From Deinococcaceae bacterium (GTDB lineage: Bacteria; Deinococcota; Deinococci; Deinococcales; Trueperaceae), in NCBI GenBank assembly GCA_040256005.1, contig JBDZWC010000039.1:1-22439 (forward strand): a DNA stretch of 22,439 bases, given 5' to 3'. Made by a program: the position numbers and the translations under genes. The notes under the pieces were generated by a model. That model did not search any database and was not told the origin of the DNA. It saw nothing but the letters and a program-made list of their open reading frames with translations. Of the stretch, positions 6,041 through 21,940 are shown one piece after another (the stretch's first letter is position 1; each line of letters opens with the position of its first letter).

Positions 6041-6085
6041 GTGGTGGCGGCTCGGTGCCGGCGGCATGGTGACCGCGCGTCTCCC

Positions 6086-6130
6086 TTGGCTTTTCGCCAG
6101 GTCAGGGTTGTAGGCTTGCTCGGCTGGAGG
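6086..6130 (+). promoter_or_regulatory. Candidate promoter and RBS of the ABC exporter pair
   Basis: TTGGCT (6086-6091), TAGGCT (6111-6116; 19-bp spacer, atypical), GGAGG (6126-6130) before TTG 6137. Confidence 0.4.
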
Positions 6131-6136
6131 ACGGGG

Positions 6137-7933
6137 TTGACGTTAGCTAGCACGACGCTCGACAGGTCGGGCCCGGGCGAGTTCGCCGTGGAGGGTGCGC
6201 ACGGTTACGACAGGCGCACGCCGCTGCGTTGGATCGTCTCGCACCTCCTGCGCTACTGGCCGCTGCTCGTCTCGTTCTTCGTCTGCGCCCTGGCGACGAA
6301 CGTCCTGTTCTCGACCGTGCCCCGTCTGACCGGCAGGGCCTTCGACGCCGTCCTCAGCGGCCAGGGCACGGCCGCGCTACTGCGCATCGCCCTCAGCATC
6401 CTGGCCGTCGTCGTGACGCGTTCCATCGTCGACATCGCCCAGAGCTTCTCGATCGAGACGCTGGGCCAGAGGCTCGAGCGCGACGCCCGCGATGAGCTGT
6501 ACCAGAGCCTCCTTGGCAAGAGCCAGACGTTCCACAACCGCCAGCGGGTCGGCGACCTCATGGCACGGGCGGCGAACGACGTCAGGCAGCTCAACCCGAT
6601 GATGAACCCGGGCGTCTCGCTGATCTCGGAGTCGGCGATGAGCCTCGTGGTGCCGCTCGTGTTCATGGCGACGATCGACCCACGCTTGCTGCTCTCGCCT
6701 CTCTGCTTCATCGTCACGTTCGGCTTCGCGCTGCGGTCCTACATGCGGCAGCTCAACCCGGTCGTGGGAGAGCTGAGGCAGCGCTTCGGCTTGCTCAACG
6801 CGGGCCTCAACGAGACGATCACCGGCATCGAGGTCGTCAAGTCCACGGTGCAGGAAGGACAGGAGAAGGCCAAGTTCGAGGGGAACGCGCGCGCCGTGAG
6901 GGACCTGTTCGTGAGGCAAGGTCTGGTCCAGGCCCGCTACCTGCCCCTGCTGCTCATCGGCATCGCGGTGGCCGGCGGGTTCGCACACGGGGTGAGCCTG
7001 CTCACGCTCGGCGAGATCACGACCGGCGAGCTCGTGGCGTACATGGGACTGTTCGCGGCGCTGAGGTTCCCGGCCTTCATATCCATCTTCACGTTCTCGC
7101 TCGTGCAGATGGGCCTAGCCGGCGCCAGGCGGATCCTCGAGCTCATCAACAGCGAGGTCGACATGGAGGTGGACGAGCGCGGCCACTCGGGCAGGGTGGA
7201 GGGCGCCATCGAGTTCCGCGACGTCACCTTCGCCTACGAAGGCAGCTCAGAGGGCAAGGACGCCCTGCGCGACGTGAGCTTCCGGGTCGAGTCCGGTCAG
7301 ACCGTGGCCATCGTGGGCCAGACGGGCTCGGGCAAGAGCACGATCACCCGGCTCGTGAACCGCATCTACGACGTCACGGCCGGCAGCATCCTCATCGACG
7401 GCGTCGACGTGCGCGACTGGAACCTGGCCTCGCTCCGCTCGCAGGTGTCGGTGATCGAGCAGGACGTGTTCCTGTTCTCGCGGAGCATCGCCGAGAACAT
7501 CGGGTTCGGGCTAGGGCCCATCGCGACGCGGGAGAACATCATCCAGGCCGCCAAGGCCGCCCAAGCCCACGACTTCATCGTGGGGTTCGCCGACGGGTAC
7601 GAGACCGTCATCGGCGAGCGCGGCGTGACGCTGTCTGGCGGGCAGCGGCAGCGACTCGCCATCGCCCGCGCGCTGCTCACCGACCCTCGCATCCTGGTGC
7701 TGGACGACTCGACGTCGGCCATCGACAGCGCGACAGAGGACCAGATCCAGAAGGCCATCAACAAGGTACTGGAGGGACGGACGACCCTGATGATCACGCA
7801 CCGCCTGTCCCAGATCAGGAAGGCTGACCTGGTCCTGGTGGTGCACGGCGGCGTTCTCGTGGACCAGGGCACGCATCACGAGCTGCTGGACCGCAACCAC
7901 CTCTACCGCCGGATCTTCGCGAGGTTCGACTGA
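6137..7933 (+). CDS. ABC exporter half-transporter (TMD+NBD), subunit 1 of a heterodimeric type IV exporter (TM287/TmrB-like)
   Basis: Hydrophobic TMD, Walker A GQTGSGKS, signature LSGGQ, degenerate Walker B ILVLDD, H-loop ITH. Start refined to the in-frame TTG 6137 after a GGAGG RBS (ORF track gives 6041). Confidence 0.92.
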   Translation: MTLASTTLDRSGPGEFAVEGAHGYDRRTPLRWIVSHLLRYWPLLVSFFVCALATNVLFSTVPRLTGRAFDAVLSGQGTAALLRIALSILAVVVTRSIVDIAQSFSIETLGQRLERDARDELYQSLLGKSQTFHNRQRVGDLMARAANDVRQLNPMMNPGVSLISESAMSLVVPLVFMATIDPRLLLSPLCFIVTFGFALRSYMRQLNPVVGELRQRFGLLNAGLNETITGIEVVKSTVQEGQEKAKFEGNARAVRDLFVRQGLVQARYLPLLLIGIAVAGGFAHGVSLLTLGEITTGELVAYMGLFAALRFPAFISIFTFSLVQMGLAGARRILELINSEVDMEVDERGHSGRVEGAIEFRDVTFAYEGSSEGKDALRDVSFRVESGQTVAIVGQTGSGKSTITRLVNRIYDVTAGSILIDGVDVRDWNLASLRSQVSVIEQDVFLFSRSIAENIGFGLGPIATRENIIQAAKAAQAHDFIVGFADGYETVIGERGVTLSGGQRQRLAIARALLTDPRILVLDDSTSAIDSATEDQIQKAINKVLEGRTTLMITHRLSQIRKADLVLVVHGGVLVDQGTHHELLDRNHLYRRIFARFD

Positions 7934-9753
7934 TGGGCTTCATCATGGACGGCCTCGCCGCCGAGGCCTACGACCGCGAGTACTCGGACGTCCAGCTGCT
8001 CCGGCGCATCGTCGCGTACTTCCGGCCGTACGCGGGCGCGATGCTCGCCGCGGGCCTGGCCGTGTTCATGGTGGCGTCGTTGGACGCCCTACTGCCCATC
8101 ATCGTGTCGGTAGCGATCGACAGGGTCGGTCAGGAGGCCAGCGATCCGGGCGGGGTATGGCGCCGCACGGGCGGGCTGGTCGCGGCGTTCCTCGGCGCCG
8201 CCGTCCTGTCCTGGTGCTTCAACTTCGTGAGGCAGTGGCTGTCGGCGCGCTCGGTAGGCGACGTCGTGCTCAGGCTGCGCCGCGACGCCTTCGACGCGGT
8301 GATGGCGCGTGACATGTCGTTCTACGACGAGTTCTCGACCGGCAGGGTGGTCAGCCGCGTCACGTCTGACACGCAGGACTTCTCCCAGGTGGTCACGCTC
8401 TCCCTCAACCTCATAAGCCAGCTGCTGCAGGTGGCGATCCTCTTCGGCGTCCTCTTCTACGTGGACGGTCGCCTCGCCCTGCTCGCCGCGGCGATCGCTC
8501 CCGTCGTCGTCGGCGTGGCGCTGGCATTCCGGCGCATCGCCCGACGCGTTACCAGGCAGGCGCGGCGGGTGCTCGCGGACGTGAACGCCAACGTGCAGGA
8601 GTCGCTCACGGGCATCGCAGTGGCCAAGGCGTTCCGGCAGGAGCAGGCCGTCTACGACCGCTTCAAGGACGTCAACGACCAGTCCTACCGCTACAACCTG
8701 ATGCAGGGGCTCACCTTCTCGGCCATCTTCCCGGTGCTCGGCCTCGTCTCGGGCATAGGCACCGCGCTGATCGTCTACTTCGGCGGTAACAGGCTCCTGG
8801 GTGGGGCCATCACGCCGGGGCAGTGGTTCCTCTTCGTCGAGGCGCTGGCGCTGATCTGGTTCCCGCTCACGAGCATCGCCTCGTTCTGGAGCCAGTTCCA
8901 GCTGGGGCTGTCGGCCTCGGAGCGGGTGTTCGCGTTGATAGACGCCGAGCCGCGCGTGAACCAGAACGCGGCGCTGAAGCCCGACAGCCTGCGAGGCCGT
9001 ATCGACTTCGAGAGCGTCGACTTCCGGTACACGGACCAGGAGGACGTGCTCACGGGCTTCGACCTCTCGATCGAGGCGGGGGAGACGGTCGCGCTGGTGG
9101 GCCACACCGGCGCAGGCAAGTCGAGCATCGGCAAGCTCATCGCCCGGTTCTACGAGTTCCAGGGCGGCCGCATCCTGATCGACGGCACCGACATCCGGGA
9201 CTTCGACCTGTCCGCCTACCGGGAGCACCTGGGGATCGTCCAGCAGGTTCCGTTCCTGTTCTCGGGGTCGGTGCGCGACAACATCCGCTACGGCAGCCCT
9301 GCAGCGACCGACGATGAGGTCGTGGCGGTGGCCCGCCGCATCGGCGGGGGTGACTGGCTCGAGGCGCTGCAGAACGGGCTCGACACCGACGTGGGAGAGG
9401 GTGGTCGCGGCGTCTCCATGGGCCAGAGGCAGCTGATCGCGATGGCGAGGGTGCTGCTCCAGGACCCCAGCATCCTGATCCTCGACGAGGCGACCGCCAG
9501 CGTGGACCCGCTCACGGAGGCGCAGATCCAGGAGGGACTCGAGGTCGTGCTGGCCGGCAGGACCTCCATCGTGATCGCACACAGGCTGTCGACGATCAAG
9601 GGAGCCGACAGGATCCTGGTGCTAAGGGCCGGCGAGGTCATCGAGCAGGGCACCCACGACGCTCTGATCGCCCAGGGTGGCCACTACGCCGAGCTGTACG
9701 CTACCTACTTCCGCCACCAGTCACCGGACTACGACGTAGCGGCCAGGGTGTGA
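7933..9753 (+). CDS. ABC exporter half-transporter (TMD+NBD), subunit 2 (TM288/TmrA-like)
   Basis: Walker A GHTGAGKS, signature VSMGQ, canonical Walker B ILILDEATA, IAHRLST. TGATG overlap with the upstream gene. Confidence 0.93.
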   Translation: MGFIMDGLAAEAYDREYSDVQLLRRIVAYFRPYAGAMLAAGLAVFMVASLDALLPIIVSVAIDRVGQEASDPGGVWRRTGGLVAAFLGAAVLSWCFNFVRQWLSARSVGDVVLRLRRDAFDAVMARDMSFYDEFSTGRVVSRVTSDTQDFSQVVTLSLNLISQLLQVAILFGVLFYVDGRLALLAAAIAPVVVGVALAFRRIARRVTRQARRVLADVNANVQESLTGIAVAKAFRQEQAVYDRFKDVNDQSYRYNLMQGLTFSAIFPVLGLVSGIGTALIVYFGGNRLLGGAITPGQWFLFVEALALIWFPLTSIASFWSQFQLGLSASERVFALIDAEPRVNQNAALKPDSLRGRIDFESVDFRYTDQEDVLTGFDLSIEAGETVALVGHTGAGKSSIGKLIARFYEFQGGRILIDGTDIRDFDLSAYREHLGIVQQVPFLFSGSVRDNIRYGSPAATDDEVVAVARRIGGGDWLEALQNGLDTDVGEGGRGVSMGQRQLIAMARVLLQDPSILILDEATASVDPLTEAQIQEGLEVVLAGRTSIVIAHRLSTIKGADRILVLRAGEVIEQGTHDALIAQGGHYAELYATYFRHQSPDYDVAARV

Positions 9754-9821: not shown

Positions 9822-10910
9822 ATGTCGAGCAGTGGGAACGGAGTGGCCTCCGAGCTGAGGACCGACCCTCGGGACGACGCCGCTGCGGCCGGCCTCCGTT
9901 ACGTTGAGGACGGCGATCCGGGCTTCTCGCGCCGTCGGCGGGGCAAGGGCTTCGAGTACTGCGGCGTCGGGGGTGAGACGCTCAGCGACCCTGCGGTGCG
10001 GGAACGCATCGCGGGCCTGGCCATCCCGCCGGCCTGGCGGGAGGTCTGGATCTGCCCGCACCCGGACGGCCACCTGCAAGCCACGGGCAGGGACGAGGCT
10101 GGGCGGAAGCAGTACATCTACCATCCGGCGTTCACCGCGCTGCGAGACGCGGCGAAGTTCGCGCGGCTGACGGCGTTCGGCGAGGTGCTACCGCGCGTGC
10201 GCCGGCGCGTCAGGCGCGACCTGCGGCGCGGCACCCTGGACCGCACCCGTCTCGTGGCCGCGGCCGTCAGGCTGCTCGACTCCACGCTCATCCGGGTAGG
10301 CAACCCCGCGTACGCCAAACAGAACGGCTCGTACGGCGTGACCACGCTGCGGCGCAAGCATGTGCGGCTCAACGGCTCCGAGATCGACCTGCGGTTCATC
10401 GGCAAGTCGGGCGAGAAGCACGCCCTCACGCTCGTCGACGAGGAGCTCGCAGCCGTCGTGAGGGACACCCAGGAGCTACCCGGTTACGAGCTGTTCCGCT
10501 ACCTGGACGCGGACGGCGCCAGCCAGACGGTGGACTCGCGCGACGTCAACGAGTACCTGGCCGCGGTGAGCGGCGACGACGTGACGGCGAAGGACTTCCG
10601 GACGTGGGGCGGCACCGTCGTGACGGCGGCCGCGCTGCACGCCTCCGGCCTGTCCGCGCGCGCGGCGGCGGAACTGAGCGAGGCGAAGCTGAAAAAGGCG
10701 CTCAACGAGGCCATCTGCGCCGCGGCGGAAACGCTGGGCAACACGCCGGCGGTGTGTCGGCAGTCCTACGTCCATCCGGCGCTCATCGACCGCTTCCTCG
10801 CGGGCGCTTTCGACACGGCCTATCAGGAGTCGCTGGCGCGCGCTCGCAAGAGCCGGCGCCGCGAGCTCAAGCTTCACGAGGCGGCAACGCTCGAGTTCCT
10901 GCGGCAGTGA
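9822..10910 (+). CDS. Bacterial DNA topoisomerase IB (poxvirus/Deinococcus TopIB-like)
   Basis: LAIPPAWREVWIC, GHLQATGRDEAGRKQYIYH, IRVGN, YGVTTLR, FIGKSG, TAKDFRTWGGT, LGNTPAVCRQSYVHP (catalytic Tyr). ATG 9822 preferred over TTG 9813. Confidence 0.93.
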   Translation: MSSSGNGVASELRTDPRDDAAAAGLRYVEDGDPGFSRRRRGKGFEYCGVGGETLSDPAVRERIAGLAIPPAWREVWICPHPDGHLQATGRDEAGRKQYIYHPAFTALRDAAKFARLTAFGEVLPRVRRRVRRDLRRGTLDRTRLVAAAVRLLDSTLIRVGNPAYAKQNGSYGVTTLRRKHVRLNGSEIDLRFIGKSGEKHALTLVDEELAAVVRDTQELPGYELFRYLDADGASQTVDSRDVNEYLAAVSGDDVTAKDFRTWGGTVVTAAALHASGLSARAAAELSEAKLKKALNEAICAAAETLGNTPAVCRQSYVHPALIDRFLAGAFDTAYQESLARARKSRRRELKLHEAATLEFLRQ

Positions 10911-10952: not shown

Positions 10953-13169
10953 TCAGCGCCGTAGCGCATCGACCGTGGCCATGAGGTGCGCGATACGGCT
11001 GGACATGTGCCGCGCCGACCAGGCCCAGAGCGACGCCGCCGTGGCGGGCTCCTCGGCCTGCAGCCGCGCCAACGACTGGCGGGTCAGCTTGTAGGCGACG
11101 ACGGCCGTGTCGGCCCTGACGGTGGCCGCTCGTGGCCTCTCGGTCAAGAGGCCCACCTCACCGACGATGCTGCCCCTGCCCATCGTCTCGAACCGCTCGG
11201 GAGGCAGGCCCGGTCGCGCCCTCTCGGCGGTCACCCGCCCCGAGGTGATGAGGTACATGGCGTCGGCCGGCGCACCTTGCTCGATGAGCACCTCGTCCGC
11301 CGCGAGCGCCACGCGCTCGGCGTAGCGCTCGATGGTCCCGGCGTCCACTCCGCTCCCTACCAGGACGTCGGAGAGCGTCGAGGCCTCGGTGGGCGAGTAG
11401 CTCACACCGGCCTCGGAGAGGATCCGCGCCTCCTCCGCTTCCAGGGCCGCGTCGACCGATGGGTAGACCTCCACGCCGGCGGTCACCAACACGCCACCCG
11501 ACCGGAGCCTGCGCTCCAGCGAGGCTGGCAGGCCGGCCAGCGCCACTACGGCGCCGCTGGAGGTCGCTCTCTTCGTCAGGTTCAGCAGCGCGCTCGTCCC
11601 GCTCGCATCGAGACCGGTGACCCTGGCCAGGTCGAGGACGAGACACCTGACGGCACCGGACCTCAGCTTGGCTTCGACCTGGTCCGCCACCTTGACGGCG
11701 GTGCCGAAGAACAGGAACCCCTGCAGCTGCAGCACGAGCACCGCGTGGGTCGAGTGCCTCAGCACCTCTTCCTCCTCGGGCCGGCGCCTGACGCGGCTGC
11801 GCAGCTCGGTCCCGGTCACGGCGTACCGGACGGGGTCCACGCGGCCGTAGTTGACGACGAAGAGCAGGACGGCGAGGATCAGCCCCGCCCCCACGCCTTG
11901 CAGGAACCCGCTGACAACGACGACGAGCAGGATCACGACGACGATCCCGTACTCCACGGAGCCCAGTCGCCGCCGCATGTCCCACAGCCACTGGTAGAGG
12001 AACTCGAGGCCGAGGAACGCCACGATGCCACCCACCACGGGCCGAGGAAGGTACTGGACCGCACCTCCTCCGAACGCCAGCGCCGCCACGAGCAGGGCGG
12101 CCACGATCATCACGGTCCGTCGAGAACCGGTCCCGATCCGGCGGCTCAGACTGGCGAGCGAGACGGAGTGGTAGACGACGTTCCCGCCCAACGCCCCGGC
12201 GACCAGGTTGCCGATGCCGGCAGACCGCAGCTCCTCGTCGAGGTCGATGCGGTCCGCGACCTCGAGCTCCGTCGCGGTGATGTTGAGCAGCGTAGCGATG
12301 AGAGCCACGACCGGCACGGTGGCCGCGACCGGCAGCTGTGCCGCCAGCGCGGACCAGTCGACGGCGGACAGGTCGGAGGGTCGGAAGCCGAACAACAGGC
12401 TGCCTCCGGCTGCACCGCCGATGAACAGACCCTCCGCCCGCCACGACGGCAGGTCTCCGCCCGCGATCAGCATGATTACGTAGAAGGCGACGAAGCCGCC
12501 GACCGTGAGCAGTGGGTTCGCCGCCGGATGCGAGATCCTGCGGCCCGCGACCATGAGGACGACCGCGAAAGCCAGGCCGGGGAGGACCGTGTAGAGCCAG
12601 CCGCCGTCGATCATCTGGCCCAGGTGCGCGACGTCAACGTACCGGCCTGCCATCACCGTCAGCCCGCCTTGCAGCAACAGCCACCCGGTACCGGCGAGGA
12701 AGCCGCCCATGACGGGGTAGGGCAGGTACCGGACCAGCCGGCCCAGGCGCAGCCAACCAACCGCCATGAACACCAGTCCCGTGGCTAGGGTGGCGAGCGC
12801 GCTGAGCGCCATCATCGTGGCGTACGCCACCTGGCCCCCGGTGCCTATGTCCGCTACCAGGCCGACCGCGGTGCCCGCCAGCACGGCGGGCGGAGCGTCT
12901 TGCGCGGTCGGGATCGAGCTGGGGGCCGCCCGCCGGAGCAGGACGACGAGCACGGCGATCAGGGCGCTCGTGATGGCGAGGCCTATGCCACGGGCGGCGA
13001 ACTCCGGTCCCGCCACCGCGGTGAGCAGGGTGCCCACCGACACCGCGATCGTGATCATCACGGACGCCACGACCAGGCCGGCGGCCGCGTCGCTCGCGAG
13101 CGAGCCGCGCCTGGCACGGCTCGCCGCGAGCTTCATGTGCGGGTCATCGAGGCCCGCGCCTCCCTGCAT
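10953..13169 (-). CDS. SulP/SLC26 family transporter with STAS and C-terminal cyclic-nucleotide-binding domain
   Basis: LGRLVRYLPYPVMGGFLAGTG (SulP motif), DLDEELRSAGIGNL, LQGFLFFGTA and LDLARVTGLDASG (STAS), LIEQGAPADAMYLITSG...GEVGLLTERPRAATVRA (cNMP). ATG 13169 is 3 nt after the upstream stop; alternative start 13136. Confidence 0.92.
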   Translation of the reverse strand: MQGGAGLDDPHMKLAASRARRGSLASDAAAGLVVASVMITIAVSVGTLLTAVAGPEFAARGIGLAITSALIAVLVVLLRRAAPSSIPTAQDAPPAVLAGTAVGLVADIGTGGQVAYATMMALSALATLATGLVFMAVGWLRLGRLVRYLPYPVMGGFLAGTGWLLLQGGLTVMAGRYVDVAHLGQMIDGGWLYTVLPGLAFAVVLMVAGRRISHPAANPLLTVGGFVAFYVIMLIAGGDLPSWRAEGLFIGGAAGGSLLFGFRPSDLSAVDWSALAAQLPVAATVPVVALIATLLNITATELEVADRIDLDEELRSAGIGNLVAGALGGNVVYHSVSLASLSRRIGTGSRRTVMIVAALLVAALAFGGGAVQYLPRPVVGGIVAFLGLEFLYQWLWDMRRRLGSVEYGIVVVILLVVVVSGFLQGVGAGLILAVLLFVVNYGRVDPVRYAVTGTELRSRVRRRPEEEEVLRHSTHAVLVLQLQGFLFFGTAVKVADQVEAKLRSGAVRCLVLDLARVTGLDASGTSALLNLTKRATSSGAVVALAGLPASLERRLRSGGVLVTAGVEVYPSVDAALEAEEARILSEAGVSYSPTEASTLSDVLVGSGVDAGTIERYAERVALAADEVLIEQGAPADAMYLITSGRVTAERARPGLPPERFETMGRGSIVGEVGLLTERPRAATVRADTAVVAYKLTRQSLARLQAEEPATAASLWAWSARHMSSRIAHLMATVDALRR

Positions 13170-13172
13170 CGA

Positions 13173-15128
13173 TCAGTCGCCGGCCAGGCAGTACTGGTGA
13201 ACGGCGCTGCCTCCTGGGTCGCCGTCGCTCGTGAGACCTGGTAGCAGTGGGAGGTTGGCCAACCCACCGTCAGCCAACTGAGGCAGCGTCCTGCCAGCAG
13301 ACGCGAAGTCGCCCGCCGCGCAGGTGGGGCTGCCGGTGCGCTGGTCGAGTGCGACGAACAGCGAGGCGAAGGGGGCCGAGAACGATGTACCGATGTACGC
13401 CAGAGCGTTCACCTTGGTCTTCCGCAACAGGATCACGTCGCCGGCCGCGAGAACGTCAGCAGCGTTGGAGAACGTCGACGCTTCGTCCCTGAAACCGTTC
13501 TCGAACCTCTGAGACCCCACGTTGATGACACCCGGGGCCGCAGCCGGGAACAACGGGAACTCCAGGCCGTAGTTGCCGGACGCCGCGACGCTGACGAAGC
13601 TCTGGAAGCCGGCTCCGCAGGCCTGACCGGACTTGAAGGTGGGGCACTCGAGCAGGTCGAGCAGCGAGTCGTCCAGGGCCTCGACGGGAGACTGGATCGC
13701 ACCACTCAAGGTCTGAGCCGTCTGGCTCCCTGCTGACACGCCGTTCAGCGCCAGCAGCGCCTGTACGTACTGCTCGAAGGTGATAGCGCCGGTGTCCTGG
13801 TCGTTGAAGTCCTGGAGCACCGTGCACGGCACGATCGAGAAGCTCATGTTCACGACCGCGACGCGATAACCCGCGCTGTAGGCGTTGTCCATGGCGTCGC
13901 GCAGAGCGGCCGTGGCCTTGTCTGTATCGATCAGTCCGGAAGCGTCCCGGGCGTCCACGGCCTGGAGCCTGACCTTGCCCTTGGACCCGAACTCGACGAA
14001 GTACGGGTTGCTGGTCTTGCTGACCTTGCCCTTACCGAGCAGGTCCTCGAGCAGCGTCCGAAGTTGGTGGAAGACCAGGGCTCCATGGCTGTAGTCGTAT
14101 CCGAGGGTCTGCGTCTCCGGGTCGATCCCGGCCAGGCGCGCGTCCAGGTCGTCACCAAGCAAGTTCGAAGGCAACTCGTACCTGCCGCCGAAGTCGTCCA
14201 GAACGAGGATCACGGTGTTGATGCTGTCCTTGCCCGACTTGGCAAGCGAGCTGTCGAAGTGATCGAGCCGGTCCGCGAGGTCGCCGAGCGTGACGAGGCG
14301 ACCGGCGAGGCTACTTGTGCCCTGGAGGGGAGCTGCGAACAGGCCGCCCCCTGCGCCCACCGCCTGGAGGCCCGCGCCAACGGCCTGCAGGCCGGCGCCC
14401 ACGGCTTGTAGACCGGCCCCTACCGCCTGCAGACCCTGGCTGGGCAACGCGGCCTCGTTGGCCGGACAGCTCAGCGCTTCTGGGTCCAGGCCGCCATGGC
14501 CGGACAGAGCCGCGAGCTCTTCTAGGCTCTGTGCGACGAGGACCTTGAAGCTCACGTCGAGGCGACTGCCAGACGAAACGGTGATCATGGTGTCGCTGCT
14601 GCCGCCACCCCGGCCCTTGCCGCCCTCCTCGACGATCCTGACGTTCAGGTACCCCAGGCACTCACCTTCGTAGTCGTTGCAGACCGGCTGCTCACCGGAG
14701 CCGGGCATCCGTATCTCGACGCGTATGCGTTCGGCTACTGACGGTGCGAAGACCGGCCAGTTGAACCTATACGTGTCGCCGTTGCGGCTCAGTACGCCAC
14801 CCGGCTCCATCACGAACGTGCGCAGAGCGGTGCCGATGGCATGGCTGTCGTCGGACGACAGCGCGAACACCGCCACCTCGACCGGGAGCCCGTTGGCGAA
14901 CTCGCCCACGAGCTGCGAGGTGCTGCCTATGGGTGGCAGGTAGCGGGCGCGAAGGGCAGGGTCTGGCGTGAACGAGGCGGCCAGTTGCACCCCCGGCTGG
15001 AGCTCCTTGAGCATCTGGTCGGCGGTCGGCTCTGAGGCCTGTTGGCAAGCGGTGGCGACGAGCAGCAGGACGATCGCTCCGAGAGCGCCGCCCACGGCCC
15101 GCCGTGTTGACTGGAACTTCTCGAACAT
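13173..15128 (-). CDS. Lipoprotein S8 (subtilisin-like) serine peptidase with an uncharacterised N-terminal domain and GLQAVGA repeats
   Basis: Signal peptide ending in a lipobox-like VATA-C. Catalytic triad motifs ILVLDD (Asp), SHGALV (His), GTSFSAP (Ser), plus VVNMSF and oxyanion AASGN. GGAGG RBS. Confidence 0.85.
   Translation of the reverse strand: MFEKFQSTRRAVGGALGAIVLLLVATACQQASEPTADQMLKELQPGVQLAASFTPDPALRARYLPPIGSTSQLVGEFANGLPVEVAVFALSSDDSHAIGTALRTFVMEPGGVLSRNGDTYRFNWPVFAPSVAERIRVEIRMPGSGEQPVCNDYEGECLGYLNVRIVEEGGKGRGGGSSDTMITVSSGSRLDVSFKVLVAQSLEELAALSGHGGLDPEALSCPANEAALPSQGLQAVGAGLQAVGAGLQAVGAGLQAVGAGGGLFAAPLQGTSSLAGRLVTLGDLADRLDHFDSSLAKSGKDSINTVILVLDDFGGRYELPSNLLGDDLDARLAGIDPETQTLGYDYSHGALVFHQLRTLLEDLLGKGKVSKTSNPYFVEFGSKGKVRLQAVDARDASGLIDTDKATAALRDAMDNAYSAGYRVAVVNMSFSIVPCTVLQDFNDQDTGAITFEQYVQALLALNGVSAGSQTAQTLSGAIQSPVEALDDSLLDLLECPTFKSGQACGAGFQSFVSVAASGNYGLEFPLFPAAAPGVINVGSQRFENGFRDEASTFSNAADVLAAGDVILLRKTKVNALAYIGTSFSAPFASLFVALDQRTGSPTCAAGDFASAGRTLPQLADGGLANLPLLPGLTSDGDPGGSAVHQYCLAGD
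14352..14435 (-). repeat. 4 x 21-bp coding tandem repeat (GLQAVGA)x4, residues 232-259 of the subtilase
   Basis: ggt ctg cag gcg gta ggg gcc / ggt cta caa gcc gtg ggc gcc / ggc ctg cag gcc gtt ggc gcg / ggc ctc cag gcg gtg ggc gca. Confidence 0.95.
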
Positions 15129-15250
15129 CCCAGACCTCCCAATGCCACGCCGTCGAAGCGGCGACGCGGTGAGCGCTGGAAGACGTGAAGGTAGAACGCC
15201 CTAGGCTCGACAGATGATATGGCCTCGGACGTGTAGGACGTGCACAATGC

Positions 15251-18200
15251 TCACGCGGGTTGCCGGTCGGTGACCCTGCCGCCGCCCCGAACAGCCAGGT
15301 CGACGATCTCCGCGAACCCCAGTCCCGCGGCCGTCCTCGCCGCCCGCTCGCGCGCGACCTCGTCCACGCTCGTGCCGGCGTCTTCGCGCACCTCGGTCAA
15401 GGTGCGCCCGACGTCCTGATCCGGGGCCGCACCGATCGACTCGAGCAGGTTCTCGGCGCAGGCGCACAGGGTCAGCGCCTGCACGGGGTCGCCTGTCGCC
15501 GCGGCGAGCCCCACCAGGGCCGTTGCGGCCTCCCTGCGGTTGTCGATGGAGTGCGCCAGCTCCAGGCTGCGCAGGTACAGGTCGCGTGCGGCGCTCTTGT
15601 CGTCGCTCGACCTGGCGATGTCGCCGAGGTTGTTGAGGCTCACCGCCATGCCCAGCTTGTCTCCCAGGCTGGTGCGAGAGTTCAGGCTCTGCTCGTAGAG
15701 GCGCTTGGCCTGCTCGGCGTCGCCACGTTCCGCGGCCATGAAGCCGAGGTTGTTGAGGGCCACGGCCGTGCCTGCGACGTCGCCCAGCCGCCGCCTGATC
15801 GCCAGGCTGTCCCGCAGCAGGTCCTCGGCCTCGGCGTTGCGCCCGGCGTTCGCGGCGATCACGGCGAGGTTGTTGAGGGCGTTCGCGACGCCAAGCTCGT
15901 CGCCTGCCTCACGCCTGACGCTCAGGCTCTGGCGGAACAGGTCCTCGGCTTCGTCGGCCTTGCCTCGGTAGAGAGCCACGTTGGCCAGGCCGTGTAGGGC
16001 GCGCGCTCTCGCTGAGGCGTCCGCCAGCTCCGTCGCCACCGCCATAGCCTCCTTGAGCATGGCCGTCGCTTCCGGGTAGGCACCCAGATGCCACAGCACG
16101 TTGCCGCCCAGCGCGAGGAGCGCCTTGACCAGCTCGTCCGGTTGCTCCAGGCGCCTGAGCGCCTTGACCGCCGCCTCCAGCAGGTCCCGGGCCGCGGTGT
16201 GGTCGCCCTGGCGCTCGCGCAGCTCACCCAGCAGGCGGCGAGCCTTCGCCTCGGCCAGAGGTTGCCCCTCCGCGGCTGCCGTGTCGAGCGCCTGTGTCAG
16301 CCTCGCCTCGGCGCGCTCGTTGTCGCCGCTGAACGATTCCACCTCGCCGAGTGCGAGCAGCGGCTCGATGACCCCGGCTCCGTCGACGATGGCCAGTAGG
16401 CGGGTCAGGTACGCCGCTGCCGTCTCGTTGGCGTAGTTCGCCTTGGCGGCTAGCCCGGCTCGCCAGAGGAACTCGCGCCGCTTCGGGAGGTCGTCGGACC
16501 TGTCGTAGTGGAAGGCGAGCTCGTCGAGATGAGGGTCATCGGGGCTCGCCACGGCGGTCTCCACGTAGCGAGCGAGACGCCCGTGCAGGTCGGCCTTGAT
16601 GGAGTAGGGGAGGCTCTCGTAGGCCGCCTCGTGGGTGATGGCGTTGACGAAGCCGAAAACCAACGGCGCCTCCGTGACTAGGTTCGTGATCGTCGCCCTG
16701 GTGGCCGCTCGCAGGTCGCCGAGGAGCTCATCGCGGGCACGCGAGGGCCGGCATGCCTGCAGCCAGTCGACGAGGAACTCGCGGCCGATCACGCTGGCTA
16801 CCTTGAGGCTCACCTGCTCCTGCTCGCCTAGGCGGTCCAGGCGGGCGAGGGTGAGGGCCTGCAGCGTCTGCGGGAGCTCGGTCTCCCCGAACGACAGCCC
16901 GCCGATGTCTCGGCTCAACAGCTCGTCGAGCAGTGCGGTGAGGAAGAGTGGGTTGCCGTCGCTGCGCTCGAGCACCTGTTGCAACACGTCCTCGGGCAGC
17001 GGCTCCGCTTCGCGGGCGCTGAGCTCCGCCGCTATGAGCTCCTCGGCCTCCCTGGGACGGAGCGGTCCGAGCAGCACCTGCGCCGCCCCGGTCAGGAACG
17101 GCGCCTTGGACCGCTCGCCGACCGACGAGCCGGGCCGTCCGGCCGTGACCAGCGCCAGCGGGAGGTCCGCGATAGACCTGGCGACCGCCTCGAGCAGATC
17201 GCGTGAGAGGGGGTCGATGGCGTGCACGTCCTCTAGGACGATGACGAGGGTGCGACCCAGCGCCGACAGCGCGAAAGACCGTTCCCGCAGCAACGACACC
17301 AGCAGGTCCAGGCGGGAGGCCGGCCGCAGGTCCGGACCCAACGACGCCACCAGGTCGTTCTCCTCGATCACGAGGTCGAGGACCGGCGCCAGCAACGGAG
17401 CGCGAGGCGCCAGCTGGGGATCGATGCGGGCCACGGCCGCTTCCACTGCCGCGCCGCGAGCCGCAGGAGGCGCGGTGCGGTCGAGCTGCAGCAGGTCGTT
17501 GAAAACAGTTGACCAGACTCGGTACGGCGCCTCGCCCTCGAACGGCTGGCAGGCACCCGACAGGACCTCCAGGTCGCCGGTACCCACGGCCTCCAGCGCG
17601 GCGGCGACGAGTTGCGACTTGCCCATCCCCGCCTCGGCGGTCAGCTGGATGGCCTGACCGCGGCCGAACCGTGCGCTCATCAGGCACTCGGAGAGCACGG
17701 CCAGCTCCGACTCGCGGCCCACGAAGGGACGCGTGCGGTCCGAGACCTCCCTGATCAGGGTCGAGCGTCCCTCGGCGCCCACGAGCTCGCTGATCGCCAC
17801 CGGCTGCGGCGAACCCTTCACCGGCACCGTCATCACGAGGTTGAACTCGAAGCCGTCGCGGCAAGCGCGGACGAAGGCCGGGCTGGCGTAGGCGGTTCCC
17901 GGTGGAGCCAGCCCCATGAGACGGGCCGCCATGTTCGTCTCGGGACCCAGCACGCCGTAGGTGCGTCGCGTGGTGCCGCCGTACGCTCCGGTCCTGGCCG
18001 TCCCGTAGCCCAGGCCGATGCGGACCTCGGAGACGAAGTCGAAGCGTGACGCTGCCCTTCTCAACCTGGTCGCGGCGGAGGCGCAGCGATGGGCATCGTC
18101 GCCGAACGAGGCCGGCGCGCCGAACACCGCGTAGAGGTAGTTGCCCTTCTCGCCGATGGTGAGCTGCACGACCGAGCCGCCCACGCCACCGACCTCACGC

Positions 18201-19072
18201 TGGACCCAACTGACGAACTCGTCGAGCTTGCTGATCGCCTCGCTATCGTTGTCGTAGTCGATCCCGCCGAACCGCATGAACAGAGCTGCCACCGGCCGGA
18301 GCTCGGTGAGGAACTCGCCCTCGCCGGCCTCCAACCGGCGCCTCACGGTGGGTAGCAGCCAGGGGCGCAGCTGATCGAGGTCGTCGGACACCGGGGGTGC
18401 CCTGAAGTCCGCGCTGGATGCCGACAGTCCCTCGAACGGCGCCACGCGATGCGCGCCCTCATCGATCTGCTCGGTCCGCAGCCATCCCTTCACCGCGGCG
18501 GCAGTGGCATCGTCGACGATGACGTCGCCCGATGCCGCCAGCTCGTTGAGGCGCTCGATCCTGGCCACCGTCTCGCCTGCGACCATGTCCATGAGCTGCA
18601 CGTTCGGGTCCCCGACCACGGCCCTGGTGACCGGTCCTGCCGTGACCGAGACCTTGAGGCTGAGGCGTATGGACTCGTTGGGCAGCCCGGCCACCTGCAG
18701 CGCCTCGAAAGGCGCCATGGCGCGTTGCATGGCCCCGGCCGCGTCCACGGCGGTGCGCCCGGAGTCAAGTGGGAACCAGCAGAGGATCGCGTCGCCGCTG
18801 AAGCCGATGACGTTGCCGCCGCGACAGGCGCCTTCCTTGATGAGCGCGTCGTAGAGCCGGTTGAGGTGGCGGGCCACCTCTTCGGCGCCGCGCCGCCTGC
18901 CGAGCGCAGCTACGAGCTTGACGGTCAGGGCGGTGAAGCCGGAGACGTCGGCGAAGAGCACGCTGCCTTCGGTACGGTGCGCTCCGGGGGTCAAGGGTCC
19001 GCTCCGACGGTCCTCGGGCGCGTACGTCCCGAAGACCTCGGCTACCTGTGTGGTGCCGGACGACCTTTCCAC
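15251..19072 (-). CDS. Tandem class III adenylate/guanylate cyclase domains + STAND/AAA P-loop ATPase + TPR repeats (sAC-like architecture)
   Basis: C1 VLFADVSGFT...FSGDAIL; C2 ELRPVAALF...EKG...VFGAP...TNMAARLM; FVGRESEL, Walker A AEAGMGKS, Walker B VIVLED, SDGNPLFL, ARLDRL, ASVIGREF; C-terminal 40-aa repeats with LNNL(G/A). Start uncertain: GTG 19072 (downstream of a TAACAT -10-like box) or ATG 19111. Confidence 0.9.
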   Translation of the reverse strand: MERSSGTTQVAEVFGTYAPEDRRSGPLTPGAHRTEGSVLFADVSGFTALTVKLVAALGRRRGAEEVARHLNRLYDALIKEGACRGGNVIGFSGDAILCWFPLDSGRTAVDAAGAMQRAMAPFEALQVAGLPNESIRLSLKVSVTAGPVTRAVVGDPNVQLMDMVAGETVARIERLNELAASGDVIVDDATAAAVKGWLRTEQIDEGAHRVAPFEGLSASSADFRAPPVSDDLDQLRPWLLPTVRRRLEAGEGEFLTELRPVAALFMRFGGIDYDNDSEAISKLDEFVSWVQREVGGVGGSVVQLTIGEKGNYLYAVFGAPASFGDDAHRCASAATRLRRAASRFDFVSEVRIGLGYGTARTGAYGGTTRRTYGVLGPETNMAARLMGLAPPGTAYASPAFVRACRDGFEFNLVMTVPVKGSPQPVAISELVGAEGRSTLIREVSDRTRPFVGRESELAVLSECLMSARFGRGQAIQLTAEAGMGKSQLVAAALEAVGTGDLEVLSGACQPFEGEAPYRVWSTVFNDLLQLDRTAPPAARGAAVEAAVARIDPQLAPRAPLLAPVLDLVIEENDLVASLGPDLRPASRLDLLVSLLRERSFALSALGRTLVIVLEDVHAIDPLSRDLLEAVARSIADLPLALVTAGRPGSSVGERSKAPFLTGAAQVLLGPLRPREAEELIAAELSAREAEPLPEDVLQQVLERSDGNPLFLTALLDELLSRDIGGLSFGETELPQTLQALTLARLDRLGEQEQVSLKVASVIGREFLVDWLQACRPSRARDELLGDLRAATRATITNLVTEAPLVFGFVNAITHEAAYESLPYSIKADLHGRLARYVETAVASPDDPHLDELAFHYDRSDDLPKRREFLWRAGLAAKANYANETAAAYLTRLLAIVDGAGVIEPLLALGEVESFSGDNERAEARLTQALDTAAAEGQPLAEAKARRLLGELRERQGDHTAARDLLEAAVKALRRLEQPDELVKALLALGGNVLWHLGAYPEATAMLKEAMAVATELADASARARALHGLANVALYRGKADEAEDLFRQSLSVRREAGDELGVANALNNLAVIAANAGRNAEAEDLLRDSLAIRRRLGDVAGTAVALNNLGFMAAERGDAEQAKRLYEQSLNSRTSLGDKLGMAVSLNNLGDIARSSDDKSAARDLYLRSLELAHSIDNRREAATALVGLAAATGDPVQALTLCACAENLLESIGAAPDQDVGRTLTEVREDAGTSVDEVARERAARTAAGLGFAEIVDLAVRGGGRVTDRQPA

Positions 19073-19158
19073 CCTCAGTGGCCATGTTACGCCCCAGGTG
19101 CAGGCCGTCATCAGGGGGCCCCAGGGGCGCCCACTGCGGCGATACGTGCGAACATCTC

Positions 19159-20268
19159 ATGGTGCGGAAAGGCATCCTGCTCGGCTTCGCGCCCGGCTCC
19201 GCCATCGGCGTGGGTCGGTTCGGTTACGGCCTGGTCTTGCCTCTCATGCAGTCGGAGTTGGGTCTGAGCCTCTCGCAAGCTGGCCTGGTGGGCAGTGCCA
19301 ACACAGGCGGGTACCTGCTTGGCGCGCTCCTGAGCCACAGGGTCCTGGCAGTGGTCGGGTACCGCAGAGGCGTCTACGCCAGCCTGTTCCTCCAGGTCCT
19401 GACGCTCCTCGCGCTGTGGCTCGGCCCACCCTACGCGGTCGTCCTGGCACTCCGGCTGGTGCAGGGTGTTCTGGGCGCCCTCGTCTTCGTGGGCGGTGCG
19501 GCCCTGCTCCTCGCCAGCGGAGCTAACGCCACCGCCATGGGCCTCTACTTCGGTGGCATGGGCGTGGGGCTGATCCTGTCGACCGGCGCGCTACCCCTGG
19601 CCGTGGGCTGGCGGACCTCCTGGGGGCTGCTCGGCTGCCTAGGCCTGCTCATGGCGCTCGTCGCGGTCACCGCGGCGCCCGGGCTGCGCGAGCCCGAGCC
19701 ACGTCGCGTGGAAGAGAGCGGGGGGCTGGCCGGTCTCGCGCCCACCCTCGTCGTCTACGGGCTCTATGGCGCCGGGTACATCGGCTACATGACGTTCGTC
19801 ACCAGCGGCTTGGCCGTCCCCCTGGCGCCGTTCTGGATCGTCCTCGGAGTAGGGGCCATGCTCACGGGCCCCGCCTGGGGCCGCGTCATCGATCGCCTGG
19901 GAGGCGCCGGGTCGCTGAGGCTGATCCTGTTCGTGTTGTTCGCGAGCAGCTTGGCGCCGCTCCTGAAGGCCGTCCCGTACGCGTCCGCGCTGCTGTTCGG
20001 CGTCAGCTTCCTCGGGGTGATCACCGCGCTGACCACGATGTTCAGGGAGCGCCTGCCGGCGGGGGAGTGGGCCAGGGCCATGGGCCTGTCGACCGCCGCG
20101 TTCGCCACCGGCCAGGCCCTGGGCCCCACGTTGAGCGGCATGGCCGGCGACATGTTCGGCGGTGTCTCGGCCGCTCTCTGGATGGCGAGCGGCCTGCTGG
20201 CCGCCGGGATGGCGCTGGCGTTCGTGCCGTTGCGAGGCGCCGGACCCGACGCGACCCAGACCAGCTAG
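19159..20268 (+). CDS. YbfB/YjiJ-family MFS transporter
   Basis: About 12 hydrophobic segments, GVGRFGYGLVLPLM...AGLVGSANTGGYLLGAL, YGAGYIGYMTF, FATGQALGP. Start refined to the in-frame ATG 19159 so it does not overlap the divergent gene. Confidence 0.85.
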   Translation: MVRKGILLGFAPGSAIGVGRFGYGLVLPLMQSELGLSLSQAGLVGSANTGGYLLGALLSHRVLAVVGYRRGVYASLFLQVLTLLALWLGPPYAVVLALRLVQGVLGALVFVGGAALLLASGANATAMGLYFGGMGVGLILSTGALPLAVGWRTSWGLLGCLGLLMALVAVTAAPGLREPEPRRVEESGGLAGLAPTLVVYGLYGAGYIGYMTFVTSGLAVPLAPFWIVLGVGAMLTGPAWGRVIDRLGGAGSLRLILFVLFASSLAPLLKAVPYASALLFGVSFLGVITALTTMFRERLPAGEWARAMGLSTAAFATGQALGPTLSGMAGDMFGGVSAALWMASGLLAAGMALAFVPLRGAGPDATQTS

Positions 20269-20272
20269 GTCG

Positions 20273-21940
20273 TCAGTTGGTCAGGCCGCGCTCTCGGGCC
20301 CACACGACGGCCTCGGCACGAGAGTGGACGTCGATCTTGGCGTAGATGTTGGCCACGTGGTTGCGCACGGTGCGAGAGGAGATCTTCAGGTCTTCCGCGA
20401 TCTCCTCGTTGGTCATACCGCGTGACACGCGCGTCAGCACCTGATGCTCCCGGTCGCTCAGCGTCTCGCCGGCCTCCAGGGTCTCGCCGGTGCCTTGAGC
20501 CTGGGCCAAACGCTCGATGAGCCGTTGGCTGAACCAGTTCGTGTCCGACATGACCTCCTGTATGGCGCGCAGTAGCTCCTCCTGCGAGCGCTTGCGATCG
20601 GTCACGTCCAGGAAGTTCAGCAGCCAGCCGAACGAACCGTTGATCCGGATGCGGTCGCCCGAAGCGAGCACGTCACGCGCTGTGCCGTCCTTGGCCCTCA
20701 GCCGGAGCTCTAGGTCGTCGAAGCGTTCGCCCCGGGCGTGCGCTGCCTCGAGCCGGTCACGATCCCGGCTGTCAGGCCAGAGGCCCAGTCGGTCGGTCGT
20801 GGCGCCCTGAGCGCGGTCGGCCGGATACCCCGTCAGCTTGGTGAAGGCGCGGTTGACCTCGATGACGGACTCGCCCGTCTCATCGGTGATGCAGGCCGCG
20901 ACGCTACCCAGCTCGAACGCCTGCCTGAACCTGACCTCGCTCCTGCCGAGCTCCTCGGTGCGTTCCGCGACGGCCTTTCCGAGGCCGCGGTTGAGGCGCT
21001 CGAGCTCGGCGTTGGCCCGTTCCAGCTCGCCCTGGGAAGCCCGCAGCGCGGCCAGAGCTCGGGCCCGTTCCACGGACGGCCAGATACGTCCGGCGGCGTC
21101 CGTCAGCATGTCGACCTCGTAGGGATCCCAGACTCGAGGTTCGGAGGTGCAGACGGCGATACCCCACACCGGGTTGTTCGGGCCCTTGTCCAGCGGAACG
21201 GCCACGAACGATGCGATGCCGACGCTCAACAGGCCCGCCCTGCGTTCGTCGTCGAACCCGGTGTGGGCGTTCACGTCCTCCACGATGAAGGGCCCCTCCT
21301 CGAGAGGAACCAGCAGCTCGGGGAAGGCCGATCGTCTCACGTCGCCCTCCAGCGGCGCGAGGTCACCGCGGGCGTAACCGGGCCCCACCGTCATGCGGTC
21401 CTCACCCTCGTAGAAGCGGTAGAAGAAGCACCGGTCTGCCTCGACGTGCTCGCAGATCAGCGAAGCCGAGAGCCGGGCGATCTCCTGCTCGGTCTCGAGG
21501 CGGCGCAGCTCGTCACTGAGCGCGAGGAGGAAGCGATGGCGGTCCCCGGTCGCAGCCTGGGCCGAGCGTTGCCGCCTGAGAACCGTCACGTCCACCGTCG
21601 CCCCGCAGGCGTTGATGGGTTCGCCGTCCACGTCGTAGAGGATCTGACCGCGTACGGCCATCCAACGAACGTCGCCGTTGGGCCAGGTCACGCGCACGTC
21701 GATGTCGAAGGTCCCTGTCTCCACCGCAGCGGCCAAGCCGTCGTCAAGCACCGCACGGTCATCGGGGATGACGTGGTCCCTGGCCGGCTCGAGGCACCAA
21801 TCAGCGTGATCCACGTCCAGCCCGAACAGCTCGACGTGCGAAGGGCCGGGTTCCCTCTCGAGCTTGGCTACGTCGAACTGCCAGCCCCTGACCGACTTCG
21901 TCTGGTCGGGCGCCATAGCGTCGCCCCCAGTGTCCGCCAC
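20273..21940 (-). CDS. One-component regulator PAS/PAC-GAF-coiled coil-PAS-LuxR HTH
   Basis: HVIPDDR...WPNGDVRWMAVRG...GATVDVT (PAS/PAC); GAF with SFVAVPL...PRVWDPYEVDML; second PAS IEVNRAFTKLTGY...LRAKDG; LuxR LSDREHQVL...GMTNEEIAEDLKISSRTVRNHVANIYAKIDVHSRAEAV. Start GTG 21940 or ATG 21916. Confidence 0.9.
   Translation of the reverse strand: MADTGGDAMAPDQTKSVRGWQFDVAKLEREPGPSHVELFGLDVDHADWCLEPARDHVIPDDRAVLDDGLAAAVETGTFDIDVRVTWPNGDVRWMAVRGQILYDVDGEPINACGATVDVTVLRRQRSAQAATGDRHRFLLALSDELRRLETEQEIARLSASLICEHVEADRCFFYRFYEGEDRMTVGPGYARGDLAPLEGDVRRSAFPELLVPLEEGPFIVEDVNAHTGFDDERRAGLLSVGIASFVAVPLDKGPNNPVWGIAVCTSEPRVWDPYEVDMLTDAAGRIWPSVERARALAALRASQGELERANAELERLNRGLGKAVAERTEELGRSEVRFRQAFELGSVAACITDETGESVIEVNRAFTKLTGYPADRAQGATTDRLGLWPDSRDRDRLEAAHARGERFDDLELRLRAKDGTARDVLASGDRIRINGSFGWLLNFLDVTDRKRSQEELLRAIQEVMSDTNWFSQRLIERLAQAQGTGETLEAGETLSDREHQVLTRVSRGMTNEEIAEDLKISSRTVRNHVANIYAKIDVHSRAEAVVWARERGLTN

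Follow-up and report, generated by a model that had tools for sequence, protein, structure and literature searches.

A stretch of 22,439 nucleotides of a Deinococcaceae bacterium placed in the Trueperaceae (GenBank assembly GCA_040256005.1, the whole of contig JBDZWC010000039.1; hereafter the window) carries three minus-strand open reading frames, of 1286, 651 and 738 residues and with intergenic gaps of 122 and 3 bp, which encode a cyclase-STAND-TPR protein, a subtilase with an embedded, repeated heptapeptide and a SulP-STAS-cNMP transporter (cNMP, cyclic nucleotide monophosphate). On comparison with related loci, it was found that the conserved core is the pair formed by the STAND-TPR protein and the subtilase, the latter predicted to be exported, and not the trio, and that selection acts on the peptide units. 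Peptide signalling of the RRNPP kind, in which the subtilase would be a self-processing precursor and the STAND-TPR protein its NLR-like receptor, is in our judgement the probable function, and we strongly infer that the peptide is the ligand. With slightly more reserve, we are inclined to regard the family as a class of communication between bacterial cells that has not been described before, present in Deinococcota and Chloroflexota, whereby exported, self-cutting subtilases would supply tandem-repeated pheromones in at least 90 peptide dialects, NLR-like STAND-TPR proteins would read them and, as part of the same reading, the outputs would be plug-in modules: a cyclase with a cNMP-gated transporter or lipase, a transcription factor, a kinase or a DUF4062 domain. 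The features of the locus are as follows.

15251..19111, minus strand: cyclase-STAND-TPR protein of 1286 residues, the likely receptor; its orthologue is full-length or cut by a contig end in all 11 same-genus genomes
19072, minus strand: GTG, an alternative start of the receptor gene
17822..18964, minus strand: tandem class III cyclase domains resembling soluble adenylyl cyclase (sAC), from alignment to human sAC and counts over 27 homologues
16502..17728, minus strand: STAND ATPase region (Pfam AAA_16) with intact Walker A (residues 492-499) and Walker B (624-630) motifs
15392..16414, minus strand: TPR domain with an Asn ladder; the codon of Y1048 is 15968-15970
13173..15128, minus strand: subtilase of 651 residues with lipoprotein-type signal, beta-rich N-domain, peptide cassette and intact catalytic residues
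15045..15128, minus strand: predicted signal peptide of lipoprotein type, read by eye, with Cys28 as last residue; Cys28-Gln29 is invariant in alignment A1
14436..14468, minus strand: lead of the cassette, conserved Cys221 to Gln231
14352..14435, minus strand: four tandem GLQAVGA units (residues 232-259), the likely signalling peptide, judged from codon differences and conservation
13383..14198, minus strand: S8 catalytic residues D311, H348, N519 and S582, and Cys435 beside the NMSF strand
10953..13169, minus strand: SulP-STAS-cNMP transporter of 738 residues, the exchangeable cNMP-binding effector; cNMP domain at 11055-11312

Pfam assigns tandem class III cyclase, AAA_16 STAND and TPR domains to the receptor, Peptidase_S8 to the middle gene and Sulfate_transp, STAS and cNMP_binding to the last gene. 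The domains named in a preliminary description of this DNA are thereby borne out, as are its protease with a repeated heptapeptide, its three co-oriented genes, their gaps, the convergent topIB gene (ending at 10910) and the divergent major facilitator superfamily (MFS) gene on the other side.

When 61 genomes were searched with each of the three proteins and the loci then read, the order cyclase-protease-SulP was recovered on one contig at 19 loci of three Trueperaceae genera, and the arrangement is therefore not due to chance. Within the genus of the window (12 genomes), the trio lies on one contig in nine and is cut by contig ends in two, and genome G001 retains a remnant of the protease. 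The preliminary description had proposed a neighbourhood check for co-occurrence, and the three families do occur together at these loci. It had also treated the trio as the unit; the genes do form a conserved group, but SulP is exchanged for a patatin in two genera and the receptor-protease pair is far commoner with BTAD, kinase and DUF4062 outputs.

Of 128 Trueperaceae genomes, 62 were matched by a protease profile to which some of them had contributed, and the profile yielded 296 clusters at 50% identity (E < 1e-30). Neighbourhoods of 97 Trueperaceae genes were read, with five short-contig matches and one fragment row excluded; six genes have no upstream DNA, and for 78 of the 91 assessable proteases the gene immediately in front is a STAND/TPR gene on the same strand (25 cyclase, 41 BTAD and 12 other or cut versions). 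Elsewhere in Deinococcota, matches were found in 8/103 and 1/61 genomes of two families and in 0/12 and 0/5 genomes of two further ones; upstream DNA is available at 8 of the 10 loci, and all eight proteases follow a BTAD-STAND-TPR gene (two families). The partner in Chloroflexota is a kinase-, DUF4062- or cyclase-STAND-TPR protein. The family is concentrated in one order of that phylum (32/121 genomes matched), where 28/28 proteases with upstream DNA follow a STAND/TPR gene, a count that covers 31 of 34 match rows and repeats some loci of the named-record Chloroflexota set. A phylum-wide sample of 400 Chloroflexota genomes, with just four candidates scored per genome, gave no new match, and viral contigs searched with two profiles held no family member apart from one weak match. 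As the genomes are kin, these counts overstate independence; still, they comprise four output domains and two phyla. By way of comparison, STAND or BTAD genes account for only 21/2897 called genes in the window's own genome. The receptors measure 800-1300 residues and combine the STAND ATPase with exchangeable outputs (cyclase, BTAD, kinase or DUF4062), and the proteases about 350-880 residues.

The catalytic residues of the subtilase are invariant in the 22 homologues of alignment A1 and in a diverse set of 22 members, and its N-terminus, read by eye, is basic-hydrophobic with an invariant Cys, from which export is predicted. In a fold search the protease model matched subtilisins with low TM-scores, confirming the subtilisin-like domain; the same search gave no identity for the N-domain, and residues 30-300 had no match in the ESM Atlas. 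In the single-chain model, the cassette falls in a low-confidence linker between the beta-rich N-domain and the catalytic domain. Across the family the cassette consists of a Cys-x(5-11)-[Q/E] lead and a unit of 7-8 residues in 1-10 copies. A pattern of Cys, 5-10 residues, Q/E/G and then 7-residue units, in which position 6 is Gly and position 7 is small, fits 165/196 full-length proteins, with 90 different first units in 1-5 copies; the pattern itself imposes positions 6 and 7, relatives of the window protein are over-represented in the set, and in most of the 31 non-fitting proteins only the lead deviates. Among the kinase-linked versions of Chloroflexota, the units are either 8 residues long or of the GFATRGA type in up to 10 copies (10 in L257).

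Between the four GLQAVGA units of the window there are 29 synonymous and 0 non-synonymous codon differences. Over 88 genes, 1124 synonymous and 119 non-synonymous inter-unit differences were counted and 1/301 unit pairs is identical in DNA; choosing these genes by the likeness of their first two units favours identity in protein, not synonymous divergence. For the cyclase-linked proteases of A1, the repeat is 98% identical as compared with 46% for the catalytic region, in a set that came from a word-based search and possibly favours the repeat. Deinococcota members have the cassette ahead of the catalytic Asp and most Chloroflexota members have it between Asp and His; it is therefore a portable element. 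The heptapeptide, which the preliminary description had recognised correctly as a repeat and treated as a detail, is now read as the centre of the system. An amyloid-motif (RHIM/BASS-like) reading of the repeats was dropped, since the carrier is predicted to be exported and the polarity of the unit varies.

A different explanation is that the repeats act on the protease alone, as an auto-inhibitory or self-cleavage element, the neighbouring regulator controlling the protease or sensing its external products. The window cassette sits where subtilase propeptides end, its alternating hydrophobic residues fit a substrate strand, and the lead Cys is retained along with the Cys that follows the NMSF strand in 252/255 proteins, a figure from a lenient pattern with one informative lineage that we do not count as support. 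However, proteases only about 35% identical to each other share the same unit, which yet has 90 forms elsewhere; the unit does not track the catalytic domain, inside which it lies in Chloroflexota; a single active site does not readily account for as many as 10 copies; and the partners with a cyclase, kinase or DUF4062 output are no transcription factors. On this evidence we consider a role confined to the protease rather unlikely.

Signalling by the peptide would place its binding site in the receptor TPRs. Where the peptide is constant, the TPR core (residues 994-1170) is the most conserved part of the receptor (64%, against 57% for the cyclase and 47% for STAND). The best natural PDB matches of the TPR domain are LGN/GPSM2 and kinesin light chain; LGN and kinesin TPRs bind peptides. 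In a set of 32 BTAD pairs (L108, L064 and any pair lacking a parsed unit or a full receptor were left out), peptide similarity follows TPR identity with the other domains controlled (partial rho 0.20, permutation p 0.015, relatedness ignored) and is not correlated with STAND (-0.03), BTAD (0.09) or the protease catalytic domain (-0.04). Receptors of GLQRVGA peptides carry Asp at TPR position 1048 in 3/3 cases, as against 0/27 others (Tyr or His), and this residue is in helix register with His1040 and Asn1044; as the three receptors form one clade, the Ala-to-Arg and Tyr-to-Asp change is one event. Similarity of the receptor to NCBIfam profiles of the TOMM kinase/cyclase fusion (TIGR03903), HaaT and AfsR-type regulators is weak and far below cut-off.

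Two genomes give the impression that the peptide acts in trans. G001 has lost the operon protease and keeps the receptor, SulP and an unlinked GLQAVGA protease, and G002 carries GLQAIGA (Val to Ile) in both the operon protease and an unlinked paralogue. At the G001 locus (L034:7813-8067), an 84-residue protease remnant consisting of the signal and start only lies between intact receptor and SulP genes. An orphan clade of proteases of about 800 residues occurs among TRAP-transporter genes, in the genome of the window (C136 25483-27879) and at L051-L057 and L073; its members carry the operon's peptide in two copies and may supply the signal in trans. The orphan copy of G005 (L056) is identical in its catalytic region to the copy in the window's own genome with flanks 71-78% alike, so that recent transfer or a mixed bin is possible.

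The preliminary description held that the first gene can in principle make a cyclic nucleotide, and the metal and transition-state residues are in keeping with this. Both cyclase domains align to human sAC, which is also the best PDB match of the cyclase; D55, D107, N393 and R397 are retained in the window, and the metal Asp pair and the transition-state Asn and Arg are invariant in 27/27 homologues (25 protease-linked and 2 unlinked). The positions of sAC Lys334/Thr405, which we take to select adenine, hold Gln and Gly in 27/27 (Q316 and G386 in the window). A bicarbonate or anion homeostasis loop, one of the three functions offered in the preliminary description, would have the sAC-like cyclase sense bicarbonate and cAMP gate a SulP bicarbonate transporter, with the protease as passenger. 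The resemblance to human sAC, the similarity of the transporter to BicA and DauA in NCBIfam (weak and far below cut-off) and the retention of cyclase and SulP without an operon protease in G001 would suit such a loop. Against it, sAC K95/R176, presumably the bicarbonate site, are G/S/A and E/A/D in 27/27 (G103 and E186 in the window) and never Lys or Arg, patatin replaces SulP at 5/24 loci, and the protease is the most constant partner; we regard the loop as very improbable.

As regards the third gene, the cNMP pocket motif GE...R-x-A is present in 27/27 SulP-cNMP proteins examined, in agreement with the earlier statement that the binding domain is intact. The proposed link between cyclase and cNMP-binding effector also stands, as a cNMP-binding gene lies behind 24/24 assessable cyclase versions (19 SulP, 5 patatin) and 0/39 BTAD versions. 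Two other genera have a cNMP-cNMP-patatin gene in third place instead of SulP. The SulP-STAS-cNMP architecture is common (692 proteins at E < 1e-60), and tandem SulP-STAS-cNMP genes occur in G036 and G031 (L045:6354-10738 and L046) with no cyclase or protease nearby. The genome of the window also holds a stand-alone cNMP-cNMP-patatin gene (C193 71-2257), like the third gene of the other genera, which could be a second target of the same cyclase.

The patatin bears on another explanation, in which the peptide is a damage or danger signal that reaches the cytoplasm solely on envelope breach or failed export (phage, predator, neighbour lysis), and the STAND protein serves as an NLR-like guard, with cNMP from it opening the transporter or activating the patatin lipase so that the cell is arrested or dies. 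Such a role is compatible with all of the peptide-receptor evidence; the alternative third gene encodes a predicted cNMP-gated patatin phospholipase, Avs receptors share the STAND-TPR architecture (accessible text of PMC13581612), and a soybean subtilase releases a cryptic defence peptide (as far as the available text of PMC6770897 describes it). Nevertheless, the neighbours are ABC exporters, sugar transport, topIB and MFS genes in an order kept across the genus, PADLOC gives single-domain matches only, 41/78 Trueperaceae receptors are BTAD transcription factors, and the diversity of peptides between lineages resembles private communication codes. A danger signal thus appears unlikely, if the least so of the alternatives. 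Defence of the Pycsar or Avs type, which the preliminary description had also offered, fares poorly on the same domain-level matches, housekeeping neighbours and stable synteny (no genome-wide enrichment test being part of this), and peptide signalling fits best among its three suggestions.

Under peptide signalling, the subtilase would be exported and lipid-anchored, and would then excise GLQAVGA by self-processing; a Cys221-Cys435 disulphide could hold the cassette at the substrate cleft. The peptide would re-enter cells via one of the oligopeptide-type ABC systems (the genome of the window has 25 family-5 solute-binding genes) and bind the TPR groove, switching STAND and cyclase, and the cyclic nucleotide is predicted to bind the cNMP domain and gate the SulP transporter. 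The commoner versions would respond to this input through a BTAD transcription factor, a Ser/Thr kinase or a DUF4062 domain instead.

Several observations weigh against this interpretation. The model leaves the cassette unplaced (pLDDT < 50, residues 210-261), and the disulphide and the cleft position are therefore unsupported. Members from Deinococcota family f2 have single units, mostly without Gly at position 6. The correlation between TPR and peptide is weak and kin are not independent, and the Tyr-to-Asp case is a single event at one of 7 diagnostic columns. The base-selecting residues are unlike those of adenylyl cyclases, so that cyclase activity and product are predicted only. No same-strand receptor precedes 13/91 Trueperaceae proteases: nine are orphan-clade members, one is a second tandem protease, one lies behind an apparent insertion element, one has a divergent BTAD-STAND-TPR gene and one is partnerless. 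Most STAND genes of the window's own genome have no such protease alongside, and related cyclase-STAND-TPR genes in G036 and G020 lack an adjoining protease.

Other features of the window and its relatives may be noted. No RNA families or tRNAs were found in the window, and its G+C content is flat. At the level of contigs, two metatranscriptome runs, nearly identical to each other, contain short stretches of the cyclase and SulP genes; among the listed pieces from runs recorded as RNA, none spans the junction 15129-15250 or 13170-13172, and one run with a contig across 15129-15250 may be DNA. The topIB gene was ruled out as a member of the unit because it is absent at several same-genus loci. 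At 19159-21940, a divergent YbfB-type MFS gene and a PAS-GAF-PAS-LuxR regulator adjoin the operon in most same-genus loci; the MFS neighbour is also kept in genus g8, and the MFS and cyclase starts are only 47-86 bp apart. A heterodimeric ABC exporter pair at 6041-9753, divergent from a ROK-like regulator (by eye) and a sugar ABC operon, is an operon neighbour in genera g1 and g8, its role being unrelated as far as tested.

Tandem proteases lie behind one receptor at L078 and L139, and L069 has two receptor-protease pairs with different peptides 6 kb apart, arrangements as expected for duplication and divergence of signalling pairs. A second system exists in the genome of the window, where a protease with three GFYISGS units follows a TPR fragment at a contig end (C85 705-2135); a cut BTAD-STAND-TPR gene with the same neighbours as L067 (C93 1-2529) is probably its front part. 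BTAD versions in this genus (L062, L064-L067, L069, L074 and L092) have DinB and ABC-2 transporter genes upstream; behind them lie one or two small convergent genes that match no Pfam family and have signal-like N-termini, and these are candidate regulated targets. Chloroflexota kinase-STAND-TPR loci (L155, L209, L211, L216, L232 and L233) often have an opposite-strand cNMP-histidine kinase gene upstream and a DUF3352-type gene downstream.

Outside phage defence, ligands are not known for most bacterial STAND-TPR proteins. In the present family, the sequence of the adjacent gene supplies a candidate for well over 100 receptors, and binding and activation are therefore testable with synthetic peptides and natural swap pairs. 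If the interpretation is correct, bacterial NLR-like proteins would gain a self-encoded, predictable ligand, a precursor would be fused to its own processing enzyme, and SulP-cNMP and cNMP-patatin proteins would gain a cognate cyclase. Peptide communication would also be added to two phyla that go unmentioned in the accessible text of an RRNPP survey (PMC10075063).

No description of this system was found in the literature by title or abstract start, subscription papers being mostly outside the search. Among known systems the closest are the RRNPP pairs (Rap-Phr, NprR-NprX, PlcR-PapR and AimR-AimP), in which a TPR receptor gene likewise directly precedes a precursor gene for a short, variable peptide. 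According to the accessible parts of PMC8767453 and PMC3601965, Phr precursors are cut by subtilisin, Epr and Vpr, and the peptides are imported and bind the TPR groove; intragenic peptide duplication is known as well (available text of PMC10075063). Arbitrium peptides, as given in the portion available of 10.1101/2025.10.13.681337, start with G/S and end in RGA or VGA, features shared by GFATRGA, GYAVRGA and GLQAVGA. Of the five RRNPP criteria in the available text of PMC10075063, TPRs in the receptor and receptor-precursor adjacency are found here (122 bp gap), whereas the precursor has 651 residues in the window instead of 10-100 and the receptor 1286 with a STAND ATPase instead of 250-500; the remaining criterion, Sec export of the precursor, concerns the basic-hydrophobic N-terminus described above. 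As the locus departs from two of the five, the system is not filed under RRNPP. It further differs in its occurrence in Deinococcota and Chloroflexota, not Bacillota, in a precursor that is itself a protease and in one branch leading to a cyclic-nucleotide effector.

ADCY10 and bacterial sAC-like proteins similarly have tandem class III domains with retained catalytic residues, followed by STAND and TPR, but here the bicarbonate and adenine-selecting residues are replaced and there is a fixed link to a peptide-bearing protease and a cNMP-binding effector. The Pycsar logic is that of a class III cyclase with a cNMP-binding effector. The same combination is seen here, except that the PycC profile is matched over a partial domain only and the effector is SulP or patatin, not TIR/TM. 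Avs proteins share a STAND-TPR sensor with an N-terminal effector; in contrast to both Avs and Pycsar, our locus has no full-system PADLOC match, no defence-island context and a likely self-encoded ligand. The main text of PMC13581612, as far as accessible, does not contain the words 'cyclase', 'peptidase' or 'quorum', while its supplementary clade tables may list these clades. Cyanobacterial LtnT and yeast Vsb1 join SulP-STAS to a C-terminal cNMP-type jelly-roll domain (available text of 10.1101/2025.09.11.675521), an architecture like that of our transporter by description, not by sequence comparison; that text describes no cognate cyclase for either. STAND-TPR genes beside clusters for ribosomally synthesized and post-translationally modified peptides, and AfsR-type BTAD-STAND-TPR regulators, have the same receptor architectures, but here modifying enzymes and a small precursor gene are absent and the peptide lies inside the protease. 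Finally, soybean GmSubPep is a signal peptide inside an extracellular subtilase, a single 12-mer in the PA domain (PMC6770897, accessible part); being from a plant and having no known receptor, it resembles the window protease by analogy only.

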